Assembly (NCBI GenBank): GCA_029838215.1
Contig: JALGVI010000012.1
Coordinates: 1-64,000 of the forward strand
Source: Candidatus Helarchaeota archaeon
GTDB lineage: Archaea > Asgardarchaeota > Lokiarchaeia > Helarchaeales > RDOG01
Direction of reading: 5' to 3'
Length of the DNA stretch: 64,000 nucleotides
Shown: positions 2,857 through 10,108 of the stretch, in pieces
Layout: every line of letters starts with the position of its first letter
How positions within the stretch are numbered: the first letter of the stretch is position 1
Notes under the pieces: generated by a model
Told to the model about the DNA's origin: nothing
The model's input: the letters and a program-made list of their open reading frames with translations, nothing else
Database searches by the model: none
Made by a program: the position numbers and the translations under genes

Positions 2857-3579
2857 TCATTTTAGCTTCCAAATACCAATTGCGATGATCACGAGTCCCA
2901 ATGTAATGAACAAAATGCTTTGGATCTCGACATAGATCACGGTTATCACGTTGTAGAAAAGCCATTCGGCGATTCTCATCATGTTCTGCGGTTGCTCGAT
3001 TCCTCCAAGTAGCATGATGAAATAGCCAATACCCAAAGCAAGAGAAAATGATCTGATGCTACCCGAACTTTTAGCCGCAAGATAGAAGTAAACACACGGT
3101 ATGATAAATACAAGTAAGAGATTGAAGTAACTGAATGGAGGAGTAACGAACGTCAAGGCAAAATGTGTTGTCAATGCCATGATTATCATAATAGCCGTAA
3201 AAGCACAGTAGATGATCGTGAAAGCGTATTTCGTCTTTTGATTCCAGATTTGATTTTCAATTGCAAACATGAGAACGATTAAAGAAATCATCGTGAGTGC
3301 CGACCACGTGAACTCTAAACGCACTTCTATCCACGGATTTAATATGGGAATGAAATATTTGAAGATGTAATTCGTGAATAAACGTCCCAGATAGGCAACG
3401 AAATTAATAAGAAAAAACAACGCCAAACCAAGTTCGTAAATTGCCTTTGTTTCTTTCCGCTTTTCAAGGTATTTCCTGAGAAAGTATGTCGCAAAGGCGA
3501 AGACGAAACATTGATCTATGATCGTTAGGACGATGACGAGAATCGCAATTGGAATGGGAGTTGGAACGATTACTGCCAT
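2857..3579 (-). CDS. Stand-alone 7-TM membrane protein
   Basis: About seven hydrophobic segments and no soluble output domain; similar layout to 42455-43246. Confidence 0.75.
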   Translation of the reverse strand: MAVIVPTPIPIAILVIVLTIIDQCFVFAFATYFLRKYLEKRKETKAIYELGLALFFLINFVAYLGRLFTNYIFKYFIPILNPWIEVRLEFTWSALTMISLIVLMFAIENQIWNQKTKYAFTIIYCAFTAIMIIMALTTHFALTFVTPPFSYFNLLLVFIIPCVYFYLAAKSSGSIRSFSLALGIGYFIMLLGGIEQPQNMMRIAEWLFYNVITVIYVEIQSILFITLGLVIIAIGIWKLK

Positions 3580-3939
3580 TTAAGTCACACTGCATCAAAA
3601 TCTTGAGGATTTAAAAATTGGTCCGCATTTGTTATTAAGATTTCTGTTTGATTTCAGGAAAAACAATTATTGAAACAACTTGGAATCATGAGGAGTCGTA
3701 TAAAATGGTTTTTGCAATCATTGATGTTAAGTTTGCAGGATTCTCTTTAAAAAAATTAGTTTTCGGCAATGGATTTCAATTATAATTCAAGCAAACACGG
3801 TTTTTGTCTTAAATTTTCTTTCCTAGTCGTTTTTTTAACAAAAGACATGATCATTTTCTTATCCAAGTAAAGACATATATAAGATTAATTTATGAAATTG
3901 AATCTTAGAGAGATGTAAATAGATGTCTTTAGGTGGTTA

Positions 3940-6900
3940 TTGATGAAGAAAAAATCAGTATTCAATTGCCTGATTGTTTGTTCTCTTTTACTCTTACAAA
4001 TCAGCATGTTGATTCATTCACCCCTGTTTACGTTCCTTTCCGTTCTAGGGGCTCCTAGATTCGGTGAAACGAACAGTAGTCAGCCAGTTTTTGCCCCCGA
4101 TGATCCTCAATATGCGATATCTTCTGCTGCGGGCTCACCTCCTATAGTCTCGACAGATCCCGCAATTTATTTTGGGAACGGGCTAACATCCGCTTCATTT
4201 ACCTATAATTTTACTTCGAACACGAAAATGTTTAGTAGTACCTCTTTGGATTATTATCATCCCACAGAAGGATACAACATTAGTTCATTTGGGTTTGATT
4301 TTATCGGTCTCAAAACGGATTATACAATAAATACCGAAACCGATTTCATTGATGATAATTTATTTCAGCTGGATCGAGATAAATTGAGTTATGCAATGTC
4401 ATTTCGAACCGAGAATTTCAGCGGCCTTCTTTCCGGTTTTGAACTTAGGCTAAATCCCACGGTACAAGGTTCAATTTTTGCAGAAGTTTGGACCAGTACA
4501 TGGAATTCGCTTCTGCAAAGACCCGAGCCAAATGCTGTCATTGGTGCATTCATCGGAAATACTCAAGGAGCAGGATGGGATTGGATAGCGTTTGATGGAA
4601 ATTTAGTATTCCTAAACGTGAGCGAGACTTATGATCAAACCTACTTTATTTGTCCATATTCAAAATTATCCATTTTGAAGCCATATTGGGCATATTGTAA
4701 TGATACGGTAGTCTATGACCAAGTTGATGAGGGTTTTGCGCTCGAAACAGGAAATGGTGGCGTGAGTTGGAATAATGCCACGAATGGTGATACAATCGAT
4801 TTTTCAGTACAAAATATTGTATTTTCGGAAGCATATCCAACCCCAAGCCAAGTTGACTTACGCGTGAATGGAACTGCTGTTCAAAACGGCGATGTAGATC
4901 GATTTACCCAGAAATCTAATGGAACATGGCAAGGAACGAACATAGGTGGGAATTCCGAGTATATTTATTTCAATTTCACGACAAATTTCACTCAACCGAT
5001 ATCTTTTGATCTCATGTATAATGGTTCTGCCGTGAATGATTCACGGGTTGAAACGCTTTGTCGAGTTGAAGCGAATGTATATCACGTTGATTGGAATGTG
5101 ACATTTGACATGGAAATGCCTGCTTCAAGTTTTTGGCAGCTAAACCGTGATCAACTGATGAACATCACCATTCCATCGAATTGGACTATTGAAGAGGTAT
5201 ACAATTATTCGAATCCCATCGTTTATTCCACGGATACGCAAGGATCTAGCACGTTCGTTTATATCAATGATAGAACGGGTTCAATTGTAATTGAGTGTAA
5301 TGGAACCAATTTTGTGAGAAACATATTCCATTATAATTGGACGGATAGCACTCAATATGAAAATTACCTGATGAATGATACACTGAAAGTAAATGCTTCA
5401 GTAAACGTGGAATCGGCAATAAAAGCGAATCTGACGGTATTCGATCCGACAAATAATTCTGTCTATACAAATACGACGCAAATTCAAAACGAAGTGGCCA
5501 GCTTCTTCCCTTTTCAATTGATCAACGTTTCGCAAAGAAATGGAACGCATTTGTTACGCGTGGTTTGGTTTAATGGCACGCAAGTTGGGATGAATCTTAC
5601 CAGTTGTTATGTATATAACGATCCAACAATGCTCACGCTCGTGAATCAAAATCCTTCCACGCCCGTTGAACAGGGTCAATTCGTGGATATTCAACTGTAT
5701 TATAATGACACGCATACAGGAGAAGGAATTGGAAGTGCAACGATAAGCAGTAACTGGACTTACTCTTTTTTAAATACTGTCGATCATCATAATGGTACCT
5801 ATGATTTGTCGTTAAATACAGCGTTTGCTCCTGCCGGCAATCACTCGATCAATTTCACGGCTGTTAAACCGGGATATGAACAATCCATCGTCTTTACATG
5901 GATAAATATAACGGAAACATTTGAGAAAACGAATCTTACCATTGAATTTATCTCATCCCCCATCTACGTGAATGATACTTTCATAGACAATAAATATGCG
6001 ATTATCAAGTATGTCAACGCCAGTGATGGCGAGGGAATTCCAGGTGCCCATATTCGAACAACGCCCTCATGGAGTGAATCTTATTTTGATGCGATTGATC
6101 TTTCGATTGAGAACGAAAGCGCCAGAGGCTTGTATAAAGTTCCTCTTCAGACTATTGGAACTCATGCTGAAATTTCATATGGAATCCGTTTTTATGCAAG
6201 TAAAATCGAAGACGGCTTTGGTCCTTCGGATAATTACACGCATATTCTCGTCCATGCTATTCCAACCGAAATAATAACAAGTGGATATGATAACCTTACA
6301 ATATTCGAAGGTGAAAGCACGGGTATTTCTGCATATGTCGTGGATGCTGTTCACACGGGGAATCCTCCTGTTCTTAATGCAGAGGTGAATTGGACGGTAA
6401 ATCATTCTGGACAATCTGGAGAAATGGATCTAAACATTGTCATTTATGAAGGACTGATCGATGCCCCTGCAGAAAATATTCCGCCGGGAACTTACAACGT
6501 GACGATCAGGTCATCTGCTGAAGATTTTGAATCTGGACAAAAAAACATAACTCTAAACGTCTTGCCAAAATGGGAAACCTACCTGAATATCCAAACGATA
6601 AATGACTCGGAAATTCAAGCAGGACGAAGCATGACGATTGCGGTGAATATTACATTCAGTAATGCCTCGCTAGATCGCTCAAATAGGGTTATCCTTTTTA
6701 ACTTGACGGACCCACAGAATAATAGTTATGTTGAAACACGAGTAACAAACCAATCGGGAATTGCTCTCTTCGAAATCAACCCGATTCCAAACATTACGTG
6801 GATTGACGTGAATGTTTCATATGATGGCACCGAACAAATTGCAGCAAACTATTCCGCAGAACGAATAACGATATTATCTCCTTTTAGAACGAAGATTCTT

Positions 6901-9006
6901 ATCAATGATACTATTCTTGACGATGAATTGATCTCGGGTGAAATTGTTGAACTAAATGTCACGATTTATTATAACTCAACAGAAGGTTGGCAACCCCTTT
7001 CCAATGAGAACTTGAAAGTAGAATTAGATTATGGATTTGGGCAAGATGAATCATACATTTTAACCACGGATCAGAATGGACAAATATCGGGTGAGATCGA
7101 CCCACCAGAATTCGCAGGAACCCTTCAAGTCCGTGTAATATTTAGCGGAAACGACACCTTTGAATATTGTCAAAACTTCTCAAAGACTTTCACGATATCA
7201 AAGCGAAACGTTACCGTTCAATTAACCAGTACCCTTCCCGCACAAATATTTGTTGGCATGTCAATAACATTACAGGTTCGGATTCTTTATAATGAAACCG
7301 AAAATCCTGTCGTAAATAAATCCGTAACATTCATCTTTCAATTTGTCGGCGTGCTGGAAATTGAACAAAAAGCCCAGACAGACGTGAATGGTATTGCTAC
7401 CACCACATTCCAAATCCCTGATTCTGCAAGCCTTGCAGATTTCATGGTAATCGTGATACGATTTGAAGGGGATGAAAGCGTTGCCTTTCTTGAAACGGAA
7501 GCCGTGGGGCAAGTTGGTGTCATGACAGTTTCAAAATTGATATTCCAGAATCTTTGGTGGATAATCATACTCGGTGCTGCAATTTCAAGTATAGCCGTGG
7601 GTTATAATTACGGTATTAGGCGTCCTAGAATTCGGCGAAGAATCAAGGCAATGAAGAAAAGAGCACGAAGATTACAAGATGCGTTAAATCTTGCTCATTT
7701 GATGGTGATACATAAAGAATCCAGTGCCGTTGTATATTCTGAAAGTTTTGGAGAAGAAATTCAGGCAGATCTCATTGGAGGCTTCATGACAGCCATTTCG
7801 GCATTCCAACAAGAAATCAAGGTAAAAAAGAAATCCAGTGGCATTCAAGATGAAAGAGGTTTCGAGCTCAGTTATCAGAATTTCAAGATCTTGTTGATGG
7901 ATCGGGAATGGAGTCGCGTGTCCTTTATCCTGTACGAAAGTCCGAGTCCAGAATTCCGGGAAAAAGCACGCGCTTTTCTCGAGGATTTCGATAGAGAATT
8001 CGCTCCCATAATGAAGGAATTTGATGGATCGATGTCGCCATTTAAAACAATTAATCAAAAAACATCAAAATACTTGGATACGGATCTTGCAAAACCCTTT
8101 AATCTTGCCAGTTTATCCATTAGGCAAAGAAGAAAATTAAACGACATGCAACAGGGAATCATTCACATATCATCACGGCAATTGGAGAAAAAAGGTCTGA
8201 TCAGATTAGCAATGGTCATGGAAACATTGAAAACTGCTCGAAACGAACCAGACTACGTGCTATATTGTGCCTTGGACGATTTAATTCAAGAAAAAATTCT
8301 ATTTCCATTAACAGAGGAAGATGCCAGACAAGTGGACATGCAATCTTTGATAGAAACTGCCGAAAAAGGAGATCTCACGCAAGAAACTCCCGGACAACCC
8401 AGTTCGTCCCAAGCTACTACAGTAAAAACACCTGTTGAAGAAATGGAGCTTGGGCTGGAACCCGGTGAAGTCATTGCTTTGGGATTATCCGAAGAAGAAG
8501 AAGAGCGAGTACATGATGAATTTAAATCAATGAGTTCAACCAATAAGAGACTCGTTCTAAACATGTATAATGGCACGCCAAAAGATCAGAAAAAGAAATT
8601 TCTGCGGGAATTCCTTAAAGAACGCAAGAAGTTGCGGAAAAATCTATTGAAACTACAAAAGGAAGCGGAAAAACTCCGAAAAAAGGGCAAAAAACTAGAA
8701 GAGTTCCAGAAATTAGAAATGATCAAGGCAATCAATGAAGAACTCGGCGAAGAAGAAATTGCCACTCAAGTCGCAACAGAAATTCAAGAGTTACTTACCA
8801 CGTTCGATAGCATTAAGGAACACAAACAACTACGATTGAAAACCGCAACGGCAGAAAAACACGCGGAATGGCACGCCTCGAAACGAGACTTTCTACGCGC
8901 TGCACTTTTCTATAGAAAGGCGGCACGATTTTCTCTTGAAGTTGGAAATATTGACGAAGCAACACGACTAGCAGAGCTTGCAAGCGAAGCAGAAGCCCGA
9001 GACTAA
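3940..9006 (+). CDS. Large single-pass surface glycoprotein with cytoplasmic longin-like, wHTH-like and helical domains
   Basis: Signal peptide (MMKKKSVFNCLIVCSLLLL), then about 1170 aa of beta-rich sequence dense in N-x-S/T sequons, TM helix WWIIILGAAISSIAVGY near aa 1206, and LMVIHKESSAVVYSESF..DLIGGFMTAISAFQQEI (longin-like pattern). Confidence 0.8.
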   Translation: MMKKKSVFNCLIVCSLLLLQISMLIHSPLFTFLSVLGAPRFGETNSSQPVFAPDDPQYAISSAAGSPPIVSTDPAIYFGNGLTSASFTYNFTSNTKMFSSTSLDYYHPTEGYNISSFGFDFIGLKTDYTINTETDFIDDNLFQLDRDKLSYAMSFRTENFSGLLSGFELRLNPTVQGSIFAEVWTSTWNSLLQRPEPNAVIGAFIGNTQGAGWDWIAFDGNLVFLNVSETYDQTYFICPYSKLSILKPYWAYCNDTVVYDQVDEGFALETGNGGVSWNNATNGDTIDFSVQNIVFSEAYPTPSQVDLRVNGTAVQNGDVDRFTQKSNGTWQGTNIGGNSEYIYFNFTTNFTQPISFDLMYNGSAVNDSRVETLCRVEANVYHVDWNVTFDMEMPASSFWQLNRDQLMNITIPSNWTIEEVYNYSNPIVYSTDTQGSSTFVYINDRTGSIVIECNGTNFVRNIFHYNWTDSTQYENYLMNDTLKVNASVNVESAIKANLTVFDPTNNSVYTNTTQIQNEVASFFPFQLINVSQRNGTHLLRVVWFNGTQVGMNLTSCYVYNDPTMLTLVNQNPSTPVEQGQFVDIQLYYNDTHTGEGIGSATISSNWTYSFLNTVDHHNGTYDLSLNTAFAPAGNHSINFTAVKPGYEQSIVFTWINITETFEKTNLTIEFISSPIYVNDTFIDNKYAIIKYVNASDGEGIPGAHIRTTPSWSESYFDAIDLSIENESARGLYKVPLQTIGTHAEISYGIRFYASKIEDGFGPSDNYTHILVHAIPTEIITSGYDNLTIFEGESTGISAYVVDAVHTGNPPVLNAEVNWTVNHSGQSGEMDLNIVIYEGLIDAPAENIPPGTYNVTIRSSAEDFESGQKNITLNVLPKWETYLNIQTINDSEIQAGRSMTIAVNITFSNASLDRSNRVILFNLTDPQNNSYVETRVTNQSGIALFEINPIPNITWIDVNVSYDGTEQIAANYSAERITILSPFRTKILINDTILDDELISGEIVELNVTIYYNSTEGWQPLSNENLKVELDYGFGQDESYILTTDQNGQISGEIDPPEFAGTLQVRVIFSGNDTFEYCQNFSKTFTISKRNVTVQLTSTLPAQIFVGMSITLQVRILYNETENPVVNKSVTFIFQFVGVLEIEQKAQTDVNGIATTTFQIPDSASLADFMVIVIRFEGDESVAFLETEAVGQVGVMTVSKLIFQNLWWIIILGAAISSIAVGYNYGIRRPRIRRRIKAMKKRARRLQDALNLAHLMVIHKESSAVVYSESFGEEIQADLIGGFMTAISAFQQEIKVKKKSSGIQDERGFELSYQNFKILLMDREWSRVSFILYESPSPEFREKARAFLEDFDREFAPIMKEFDGSMSPFKTINQKTSKYLDTDLAKPFNLASLSIRQRRKLNDMQQGIIHISSRQLEKKGLIRLAMVMETLKTARNEPDYVLYCALDDLIQEKILFPLTEEDARQVDMQSLIETAEKGDLTQETPGQPSSSQATTVKTPVEEMELGLEPGEVIALGLSEEEEERVHDEFKSMSSTNKRLVLNMYNGTPKDQKKKFLREFLKERKKLRKNLLKLQKEAEKLRKKGKKLEEFQKLEMIKAINEELGEEEIATQVATEIQELLTTFDSIKEHKQLRLKTATAEKHAEWHASKRDFLRAALFYRKAARFSLEVGNIDEATRLAELASEAEARD

Positions 9007-9022
9007 CCCATTCTTTCTTTTT

Positions 9023-10108
9023 TTATTTAAGAAGAACATCAAGAAAATCCTGAATTAATTTCACGGTTTGATCTTCTTTACCTGATTTTAATTTTGCTTG
9101 CAAAAAATGCACGTCAATTTCATTGAAATCAAGTCCGATTAACTCAAATTTTTTACTTGCAAGGCATTTATTGATGCTCTTGGCCATTTCAATCAATACG
9201 TGTAGTTTCAAGCCAAAAACATCCAAAAAACGTGTTGCCAAGACTGCTTCAAAGGCACTAACGTCGACATCAAAAGAAATGTAAACATAGGGTGTCTTGA
9301 TTTTTGCCAATAATCCATCGAAATCCGAAATCATGGCTTCTTGATCATCCGATTTGGGAAGAAATGTCACGCCATCACGTTCGTGTTTAAGGTACTCGTT
9401 GACAAAATTCTGAACACGCTCATCGCTTATATTTCTCATTTGCTCTACGGGATAATCCGAGACTCCAACTAAAAATAGATTTGAAGGATGCACGATCCGG
9501 TTTTGAAGAACGTGCAAGAGGAAAGTTCCGCAATTATAAGAAGCAGGGATTTCTGCCTTTGAGACATCTATGAATTCTTTTTGGTCGGGGAGTAAAGTTT
9601 CGACTTGATTTTCCTTTGCATATTGTGCCAATTTAAGACGGATGGTCGAAGGTATGGCATCAAAATGCGCATCAAATACAATGGTGCTGATTTGATCTGA
9701 ACCGTGATGATCCGAAAGAGCCTTTAAAACACCACCCGTTGGTGAATGGTCAGGCGTGATGAGAAGTGGCATGTCGGGCAAGATTTTTTCTCTTACAAAC
9801 AGCTCTGTTTTCTCAAAATACTCAAAAGCACCATTAGAATCCAAAAAAATTCTAAAATCTATGGGCGAAACAAGCAATGCATCTTCTGGTCGTGGTTTCG
9901 GGGTCAACCACGTTTCTACGGGAACCTTGCCCACGAATTCAATCTCATCCAACCGGATCAATGCTTTAAAAGCATCATAAGGATCGAGATAATCGGGCAA
10001 TTTTACTTTATTCTTGGCAAGTTTTTCCATGTAAGCATGCTTGATCATCAGGCTCCGCGGTGAATCCGATGCGTCCAAAGCCACTCCAAAAGCCTTAATC
10101 TTTTTCAA
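9023..10108 (-). CDS. Arginase/agmatinase (ureohydrolase) family protein
   Basis: Metal-binding motifs PDHS, DAHFD and SFDVDV; also LIGLDFNE. Confidence 0.85.
   Translation of the reverse strand: MKKIKAFGVALDASDSPRSLMIKHAYMEKLAKNKVKLPDYLDPYDAFKALIRLDEIEFVGKVPVETWLTPKPRPEDALLVSPIDFRIFLDSNGAFEYFEKTELFVREKILPDMPLLITPDHSPTGGVLKALSDHHGSDQISTIVFDAHFDAIPSTIRLKLAQYAKENQVETLLPDQKEFIDVSKAEIPASYNCGTFLLHVLQNRIVHPSNLFLVGVSDYPVEQMRNISDERVQNFVNEYLKHERDGVTFLPKSDDQEAMISDFDGLLAKIKTPYVYISFDVDVSAFEAVLATRFLDVFGLKLHVLIEMAKSINKCLASKKFELIGLDFNEIDVHFLQAKLKSGKEDQTVKLIQDFLDVLLK

Follow-up and report, generated by a model that had tools for sequence, protein, structure and literature searches.

A candidate family of Asgard archaeal surface proteins with a predicted longin and winged-helix-like module directly beneath the membrane

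Longin domains, and the fact that they are expanded in Asgard archaea, are already known (PMC4917890, PMC10933270, bioRxiv 10.1101/2020.10.19.343400), and NPRL2-like longins are reported to be abundant in this phylum (bioRxiv 10.1101/2020.10.19.343400). Asgard genomes encode dozens of eukaryote-like small GTPases together with longin and roadblock domains; these GTPases have no known lipid anchors, and roadblock/longin dimers are described as GTPase platforms (PMC10933270). Longin domains are also combined with TPR, Ig-like, and helix-turn-helix (HTH) domains in multidomain Asgard proteins linked to the ESCRT machinery of endosomal sorting (PMC11188069), and cultured Lokiarchaeia have no S-layer but possess "complex surface proteins" (PMC9834061). 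In this study, we analyzed a stretch of 64,000 nucleotides from a Candidatus Helarchaeota archaeon (assembly GCA_029838215.1, contig JALGVI010000012.1, positions 1 to 64,000; hereafter, the window) and a receptor-like gene within it, located at positions 3940–9006 of the forward strand. The gene is a single uninterrupted open reading frame (ORF) of 1688 codons.

The encoded protein of 1688 aa (P0001) very probably combines an ectodomain, one transmembrane (TM) helix, and a 460-aa cytoplasmic tail consisting of longin, winged-helix-like, and TPR-like parts. An original prediction, made from the sequence of this DNA, had described such an architecture and interpreted it as a transmembrane signaling device that couples surface contact to a GTPase switch or membrane remodeling. 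The existence of the architecture was confirmed by the sequence analysis and structure predictions reported here, and the interpretation as a whole is partly supported. The TM helix, longin domain, and winged-helix-like domain form a module that occurs behind a wide variety of ectodomains in almost every Asgard genome sampled, and that would therefore serve the Asgard surface proteome as a common coupling cassette on the cytoplasmic side. No description of a TM-anchored longin surface-glycoprotein family was found in the literature searched; some members may already be counted as "longin domain" proteins in Klinger et al. 2016 or in the asCOG tables of Liu et al.

An AlphaFold2 model of aa 1232–1475, built on an alignment of 87 module sequences (A2), has a mean predicted local distance difference test (pLDDT) value of 94.2 and a predicted template modeling (pTM) score of 0.87. 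The model begins with a helix that continues the TM helix (model residues 2–19), followed by the longin part (20–153) and another, smaller domain composed of helices and short strands (155–243). The longin part (aa 1251–1384; positions 7690–8091) has the topology β1-β2-α1-β3-β4-β5-α2-α3, with strands at model residues 20–27, 33–38, 77–81, 84–90, and 94–100 and helices at 45–69, 106–128, and 140–153, and its limits agree with the longin-like segment that had been placed at about 7680–8100. Helix α1 carries the family motif D-L-I-S-G-F-L-x-A-I-S-x-F. In the module family, G50, F51, A54, and F58 are conserved at 98% or more, and D16, Y81, and E120 at more than 90%.

A Foldseek search against the Protein Data Bank (PDB) gave 14 matches at E ≤ 1e-3, all of which belong to the longin/roadblock group, including sigma-adaptins, zeta-COP, Rag C-terminal domains, MP1/p14 (LAMTOR), and LC7. 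Sec22b, sedlin, Mon1-Ccz1, and MglB lie just below that level. In independent structural alignments with VIA, longins scored highest, led by synbindin (Z 11.9) and then by sedlin and Sec22 (both Z 11.1). The longin of a Lokiarchaeota Roadblock-Longin protein, for which a structure has been solved (8yqg), reached Z 11.0, as did mu2 and sigma3 adaptin, and VAMP7, Fuzzy, SRX, Lst4, and Mon1 scored Z 9–10.9. Longins align over model residues 19–153, whereas roadblocks align only over residues 15–125 with Z 8.5–9.8, and the model is thus closer to longins (Z up to 11.9) than to roadblocks. The longin fold is without the N-terminal helix of roadblocks, and an extra C-terminal helix takes its place (PMC10933270). 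We class the module as longin by this distinction because α2 and α3 follow β5, and the extra N-terminal helix is the juxtamembrane segment. Residues 1251–1384 are therefore predicted to adopt a complete longin fold. The original prediction had staked itself beforehand on a longin or roadblock fold in this segment, and a longin fold was obtained (Z 10–11.9).

The module is not recognized by curated families. The longin models of Pfam (Longin, Sybindin, Sedlin_N, Clat_adaptor_s, Fuz_longin_1, and others) had no match in P0001 at E ≤ 1 or among the 87 aligned modules at E ≤ 0.1, and Pfam and NCBIfam scans of the tail gave no real match. Robl_LC7 matched two of the 87 modules at E 0.0025, below its cut-off, and the profile of the 87 modules found nothing below E 0.17 among PDB sequences.

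Hydropathy analysis located two hydrophobic segments in P0001, aa 5–36, which follow a KKK sequence, and aa 1205–1226. The first corresponds to the predicted signal peptide or N-terminal hydrophobic leader (aa 2–36; positions 3943–4047), with a Kyte-Doolittle window mean of 2.41 over aa 5–36. The second is the single TM helix (positions 7552–7617, against 7555–7617 as first read); a homologous TM helix directly precedes the module in about 90% of 154 family representatives. Lysine and arginine account for 11 of the 18 residues immediately after the TM helix. Between the leader and the TM helix there are 61 N-x-S/T sequons, compared with 19.0 ± 3.7 in shuffled sequences, while the 458 residues after the TM helix contain one, compared with 1.4 expected. 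The restriction of sequon enrichment to the N-terminal side, together with the positive-inside pattern, indicates a type I membrane protein with a putatively N-glycosylated ectodomain and a cytoplasmic C-terminus. The basic juxtamembrane segment (aa 1228–1250; positions 7621–7689) is a helix in the AlphaFold2 model (residues 2–19) with a net charge of +8, and two of its residues, D1247 (D16; 94%) and N1250 (N19; 80%), are conserved in the family. In these respects, namely the signal peptide, the sequon-rich ectodomain of about 1170 aa, the one TM helix, the basic juxtamembrane helix, and the side of the membrane on which the C-terminus lies, the first reading of the sequence held.

The Ig-like character that had been assigned to the ectodomain is supported only for its membrane-proximal part. 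An alignment of 13 homologous ectodomains was divided into windows, which were then compared all against all by hhalign. Tandem repeats of ~100 aa were found over aa ~790–1195 (probability 97–99.6%) and aa ~540–790 (91–96%), and no internal repeats were found over aa 40–540; pairs of windows offset by 100 aa in the stalk gave probabilities of 96–99.6%. One repeat (aa 1018–1069; positions 6991–7146) matches Pfam MG4 with E 8e-6 and 26.4 bits against a cut-off of 24.7; the MG4 match and the hhalign periodicity together identify MG/Big-type repeats of ~100 aa at the level of sequence. Homologous ectodomains show weak Pfam matches to Big_3_5, Big_1, and MG4, and a language-model search with the ectodomain pointed weakly to lectin-like/Big clusters of archaea (score 0.84). 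By these comparisons, the ectodomain is a non-repeated, sequon-rich head of ~500 aa (aa 37–540; positions 4048–5559), with no Pfam match, atop a stalk of about six or seven tandem Ig/MG-like units (aa ~540–1195; positions 5560–7524).

A word-indexed search returned three full-length relatives of the protein, one of them named as a Helarchaeota protein. The module itself is widespread. An exhaustive HMMER search with aa 1232–1480 against 1.84 billion cluster representatives detected 567 proteins at E ≤ 1e-3, of which 228 pass E ≤ 1e-10, and the 87-module profile detected 203 longer proteins at E ≤ 1e-5. In 154 representatives, the module lies mostly at or near the C-terminus of proteins of 900–2000 aa with differing N-terminal parts, and in about 90% of them the match begins 0–12 aa past a hydrophobic or TM segment. 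The ectodomain of P0001 is shared by only 29 of 267 fetched family proteins. All named matches are "hypothetical proteins" of Asgard archaea (Promethearchaeota, Loki-, Hel-, Thor-, Odin-, Hod-, and Hermodarchaeota), and almost all are without a precomputed Pfam domain. In the count across Asgard genomes that had been proposed, 143 of the 151 genomes sampled from the phylum matched the 87-module profile, including all 72 high-quality genomes, with multiple matches per genome, reaching at least 18. Relatives were found by pattern scan in the cultured Promethearchaeum syntrophicum MK-D1 and Ca. Lokiarchaeum ossiferum. The TM, longin, and winged-helix module thus apparently defines a large, unannotated, Asgard-only family. 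One member (E 1e-28) is located on a 22-kb contig (DATKTP010000185.1) of a metagenome-assembled genome whose title, "Candidatus Deferrimicrobium sp.", names a bacterium; either Asgard DNA was misbinned here or the family occurs, rarely, outside the Asgard archaea.

We propose that the membrane-held longin domain acts as a docking platform, which would keep a partner from the cytoplasm on the inner side of the membrane, beneath the surface protein in question. Candidates for such a partner are the ~74 P-loop small-GTPase-like proteins and the ~40 soluble longin paralogues encoded in the same genome, the latter being detected by sequence with the longin half of the module. The closest solved matches of the module include GTPase-platform longins (TRAPP synbindin and sedlin, Fuzzy, Mon1-Ccz1, and SRX), and, as indirect support, nine of the ~40 soluble paralogues are either joined to a small GTPase in one ORF or encoded no more than 310 bp from such a gene. 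Two are fusions (C122:19289-20455, L029; C57:15981-16871), of which L029 matches Pfam Arf at aa 134–266 (E 2e-19) and Sybindin, below threshold, at aa 7–55; the other seven, on contigs C27, C164, C13, C12, C83, C130, and C23, are at most 310 bp from a small-GTPase ORF. Some soluble paralogues have sub-threshold Pfam matches to Fuz_longin_1, Intu_longin_1, Sybindin, and Clat_adaptor_s. What longins do elsewhere, together with the soluble paralogues that are fused to or paired with a GTPase gene, makes it reasonable to infer that surface contact is coupled to a GTPase switch or to membrane remodeling. Partner binding and any direction of signaling are putative, and we give the docking mechanism a probability of roughly 0.4–0.5.

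Other proteins of this genome also place a longin-type domain next to hydrophobic segments. Four ORFs outside the window (C109:64890-66149, C157:32840-33943, C86:31583-32671, and C169:815-1822) encode ~7 hydrophobic segments and, at the C-terminal end, a longin-type domain matched by the module profile at E 6e-14 to 3e-4, and such fusions may represent another route to a membrane-placed longin. Four others (C160:41632-42561, C160:40603-41616, C128:19969-20775, and C1:91303-92403) have the reverse layout, in which the longin-type domain comes first and three or four hydrophobic segments lie C-terminal to it.

Several observations weigh against docking of a GTPase. Longin folds also serve in roles unrelated to GTPases, such as SNARE regulation and the sigma and mu subunits of adaptors. 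No small GTPase, longin, or roadblock gene is located near the receptor-like gene, the nearest small-GTPase-like ORF in the whole genome being 68 kb away, nor is any such gene within 5 kb of the four giant receptors of this genome. The loci of four relatives contain no linked Ras-type GTPase or longin gene, and three orthologue neighborhoods also contain no roadblock gene. Conservation among orthologue loci is limited to an amidohydrolase, a thiolase, and a GTPase of 255 aa of the RsgA/MMR_HSR1 type; in two of the three loci (P0004 and P0009), this GTPase is encoded two genes upstream, and it is not a Ras-superfamily switch. The upstream Amidohydro_3 gene is common to the P0004, P0009, and P0008 loci (L011, L033, and L034), of which the third shares the amidohydrolase only, and this synteny of amidohydrolase, thiolase, and RsgA/MMR_HSR1-type GTPase is absent from the window. 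Of 20 other family members whose C-terminal extensions were scanned, none has a GTPase or enzymatic domain after the module. Sequon density, in turn, need not mean occupancy, because in the cultured Asgard archaeon MK-D1 few proteins were heavily glycosylated according to glycoproteomics (PMC11284389). The signaling device of the original prediction is therefore supported in its architecture, whereas its coupling to a GTPase switch or membrane remodeling found no direct support in the gene neighborhoods or tail fusions.

The same neighborhoods would suit proteins that build a structural coat in place of an S-layer, with the module merely anchoring or ordering them through lateral, oligomeric, or cytoskeletal contacts and no GTPase involved. 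Each genome encodes many paralogues with diverse sequon-rich ectodomains, the cell surface of cultured Lokiarchaeia is densely and irregularly covered with proteins and has no S-layer (PMC9834061, PMC11284389), and longin and roadblock domains commonly dimerize (PMC10933270). A co-fold of the module as a homodimer gave ipSAE values of 0.00 and 0.00, which count neither for nor against dimerization. Archaeal coat proteins are usually anchored by a mere TM helix or a lipid anchor, and a strongly conserved two-domain module of ~225 aa far exceeds the needs of anchoring; its conserved polar residues, moreover, point to a specific binding function. We regard a purely structural role as unlikely.

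The end of the tail bears on another explanation, in which the module and a TPR/MIT-like end mark surface proteins for placement (e.g., in protrusions), vesicle budding, or ESCRT-type removal, as a cargo tail with its own adaptor-like fold. The 208 residues past the module were modeled by AlphaFold2 on a 13-sequence subfamily alignment. A disordered linker rich in S, T, P, and Q (aa ~1476–1509, positions 8365–8466; aa ~1474–1502 as predicted by AlphaFold2), with pLDDT below 50 over model residues 91–119 and gapped and variable in the alignment, is followed by a compact TPR-like helical-hairpin domain (aa 1510–1688; positions 8467–9003) of eight packed helices with pLDDT above 95. A "charged coiled coil" read here from the sequence is part of this domain because AlphaFold2 packs the charged segment into the compact helical hairpins, and a free coiled coil was rejected; the TPR/SNAP-like end read alongside it belongs to the same compact domain. 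The domain is restricted to a subfamily (conserved in P0003, P0004, P0006, P0007, P0008, P0009, P0011, P0036, P0043, and P0059). Foldseek gave no match at E ≤ 1e-3 for this region, only weak TPR, SNAP, and 14-3-3 rows at E 0.15 or higher, the best being Sec17 (E 0.15). In VIA, the last three helices align at Z 8–10.7 with Sec17 (Z 10.7, over 59 residues only), TPR proteins, and MIT domains, all below the chance level of roughly Z 13 for helical models. The similarity is only of a generic TPR type.

For a sorting or turnover tag speak the sigma-adaptin and zeta-COP longins of cargo adaptors among the best Foldseek matches, the mixture of longin, TPR, Ig-like, and HTH domains in ESCRT-linked Asgard proteins (PMC11188069), and the resemblance of the last three helices to MIT domains (LIP5, spartin, Vps4, CdvC, and spastin at Z 8.2–9.3, a range common for helical models), among which archaeal CdvC/Vps4 (2w2u) scores Z 8.3 and the domains of LIP5, spartin, and Vps4 score Z 8.7–9.3. 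Sub-threshold TPR and MIT matches in Pfam also recur in the unrelated C-terminal extensions of other family members, where they are suggestive without establishing family membership, and one soluble longin paralogue has a sub-threshold MIT/TPR match. Every MIT and TPR signal, however, is under the curated cut-offs, P0001 itself has no TPR, SNAP, or MIT match in Pfam, the helical end is limited to a subfamily, and no ESCRT gene is present in the neighborhoods examined. A tag of this kind appears improbable.

The second domain of the module (aa 1386–1475; positions 8095–8364) is winged-helix-like throughout the family, with helices and strands in the order H-β-H-H-β plus an N-terminal strand in the AlphaFold2 model. 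Its closest solved match is the DNA-binding winged HTH of MecI (VIA Z 7.6, root-mean-square deviation 1.9 over 58 aa), an Asgard Atlas cluster carrying HTH_47 aligns across the longin and winged-helix-like domains, and a cullin winged helix is a weak profile match to the module (E 0.35). The secondary-structure order and the MecI match make the winged-helix-like segment of the original prediction plausible, although the basic helix typical of DNA binding was not found: the presumed recognition helix (207–219) has a net charge of −3 in P0001, with a median of −1 over 87 members, and the domain is near neutral. Winged helices of longin-containing complexes and of cullins mediate protein-protein contacts. 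Because the presumed recognition helix is acidic, we read the domain as a plausible protein-binding winged helix, a provisional assignment for a domain that was searched as part of the module. A membrane-tethered transcription regulator of the ToxR/CadC type, which would bind DNA at the membrane or after proteolytic release and to which the MecI and HTH_47 matches might point, was rejected on account of the acidic recognition helix and is very improbable also in view of the packing of the domain on the longin fold as one confident rigid module (pTM 0.87).

In the docking-platform reading, additional contacts with proteins would come from the acidic winged helix and from the TPR-like end. In a bolder form, which we hold to be doubtful, the TM-anchored cassette would be the missing membrane receptor for Asgard GTPases without lipid anchors, with each glycoprotein recruiting or switching an Arf/Rag/Rab-like GTPase and the subfamily also binding ESCRT-III or another partner through its TPR/MIT-like end, right below the site of contact outside the cell. 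If true, this would be a prokaryotic outside-in pathway from receptor to GTPase that is older than eukaryotic membrane-traffic signaling. A phylum-wide, multi-copy family with a longin under the membrane and variable ectodomains is a testable candidate for the link between GTPases and the membrane, and the presence of relatives in both cultured strains, MK-D1 and L. ossiferum, makes it accessible at the bench. The family is also a candidate for the "complex surface proteins" of cultured Lokiarchaeia, and it would make up a large unannotated share of the Asgard surface proteome even if the tail binds no GTPase.

At the 5′ end of the gene, a TTG at 3940 is directly followed by an ATG at 3943, and the sequence from 3932 to 3945 comprises a ribosome-binding-site-like GGTGG (3932–3936), the TTG, and the ATG. 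The ATG at 3943 is likely to be the start because GGTGG lies 7–11 nt upstream of it; initiation there yields the KKK n-region followed by the hydrophobic core, and an A/T-rich, TATA-like stretch is located ~60 nt upstream. The public gene call (P0002, 1666 aa) begins 22 aa further in, at Met23 within the hydrophobic leader, and would therefore lose the n-region of the signal peptide. The TAA stop (9004–9006) is followed by a T-rich, terminator-like tract (9011–9028, forward strand). In the ORF map the gene stands alone, with a divergent gene upstream and a convergent gene of the arginase family downstream, and its G+C content is the same as that of the remaining window. The divergent gene (2857–3579, reverse strand; 360 bp upstream) encodes a 240-aa polytopic membrane protein with ~7 hydrophobic segments and no Pfam family, and a triple-acyltransferase gene is also located upstream in the window. 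As for the relatives, zf-ChsH2 genes are also present in the Amidohydro_3 orthologue loci. At the P0008 locus (L034:9199-14070), a second giant ORF of 1623 aa, with no Pfam match, starts 4 nt before the stop of the first, and giant surface-protein genes thus occur in tandem in some relatives.

The module can be compared with several described systems. The eukaryotic GTPase-platform longins (TRAPP synbindin 2zmv and sedlin 2j3w, Mon1-Ccz1, Fuzzy-Inturned, and SRX) share its topology at Z 9–11.9, whereas sequence identity is 3–14% and GTPase binding by the module is putative. Roadblock platforms (MglB 6hjm/3t1r, MP1-p14 3cpt, Rag C-terminal domains, and the Asgard structures 9jue/7yh1/7f8m) share the alpha-beta-alpha core and a helix before β1, but they have lower Z values (8.5–9.8) over model residues 15–125 only, and the N-terminal helix of the module continues the TM helix and does not appear to be an aligned roadblock α1. 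Longin SNAREs (VAMP7, Sec22b, and Ykt6) likewise carry a cytoplasmic longin on a single-pass protein, with Z 10.2–11.1 for Sec22 and VAMP7, yet their layout is the opposite one of longin, SNARE motif, and C-terminal TM helix without an ectodomain, whereas the ectodomain and TM helix precede the longin here. A longin SNARE was rejected as an identity for P0001: its TM helix (aa 1205–1226) precedes the longin (aa 1251–1384), none follows it, and there is no synaptobrevin or SNARE match.

NPRL2/NPRL3 of GATOR1/SEACIT resemble the module in having a longin followed by one or more winged-helix-like domains. They have no TM helix or ectodomain, P0001 has no NPR2 or NPR3 match in Pfam, and the longins of the SEA complex and Lst4 (Z 7.8–9.3) are not among its top structural matches. 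In the signal recognition particle receptor (SR-alpha/SR-beta), a longin is likewise located at the membrane; there, the TM helix belongs to the SR GTPase and the longin is a soluble protein, whereas the longin protein itself is transmembrane here. The Asgard longin proteins have the same fold (8yqg, VIA Z 11.0, 132 residues aligned) and the same phylum-wide expansion. Described Asgard longins are soluble or fused to GTPases (PMC10933270; bioRxiv 10.1101/2020.10.19.343400). In contrast, the longin of the family proposed here is not covered by any curated model of Pfam or NCBIfam, always occurs together with a winged-helix-like domain, and in P0001 is placed under a TM helix behind an ectodomain of ~1170 aa.

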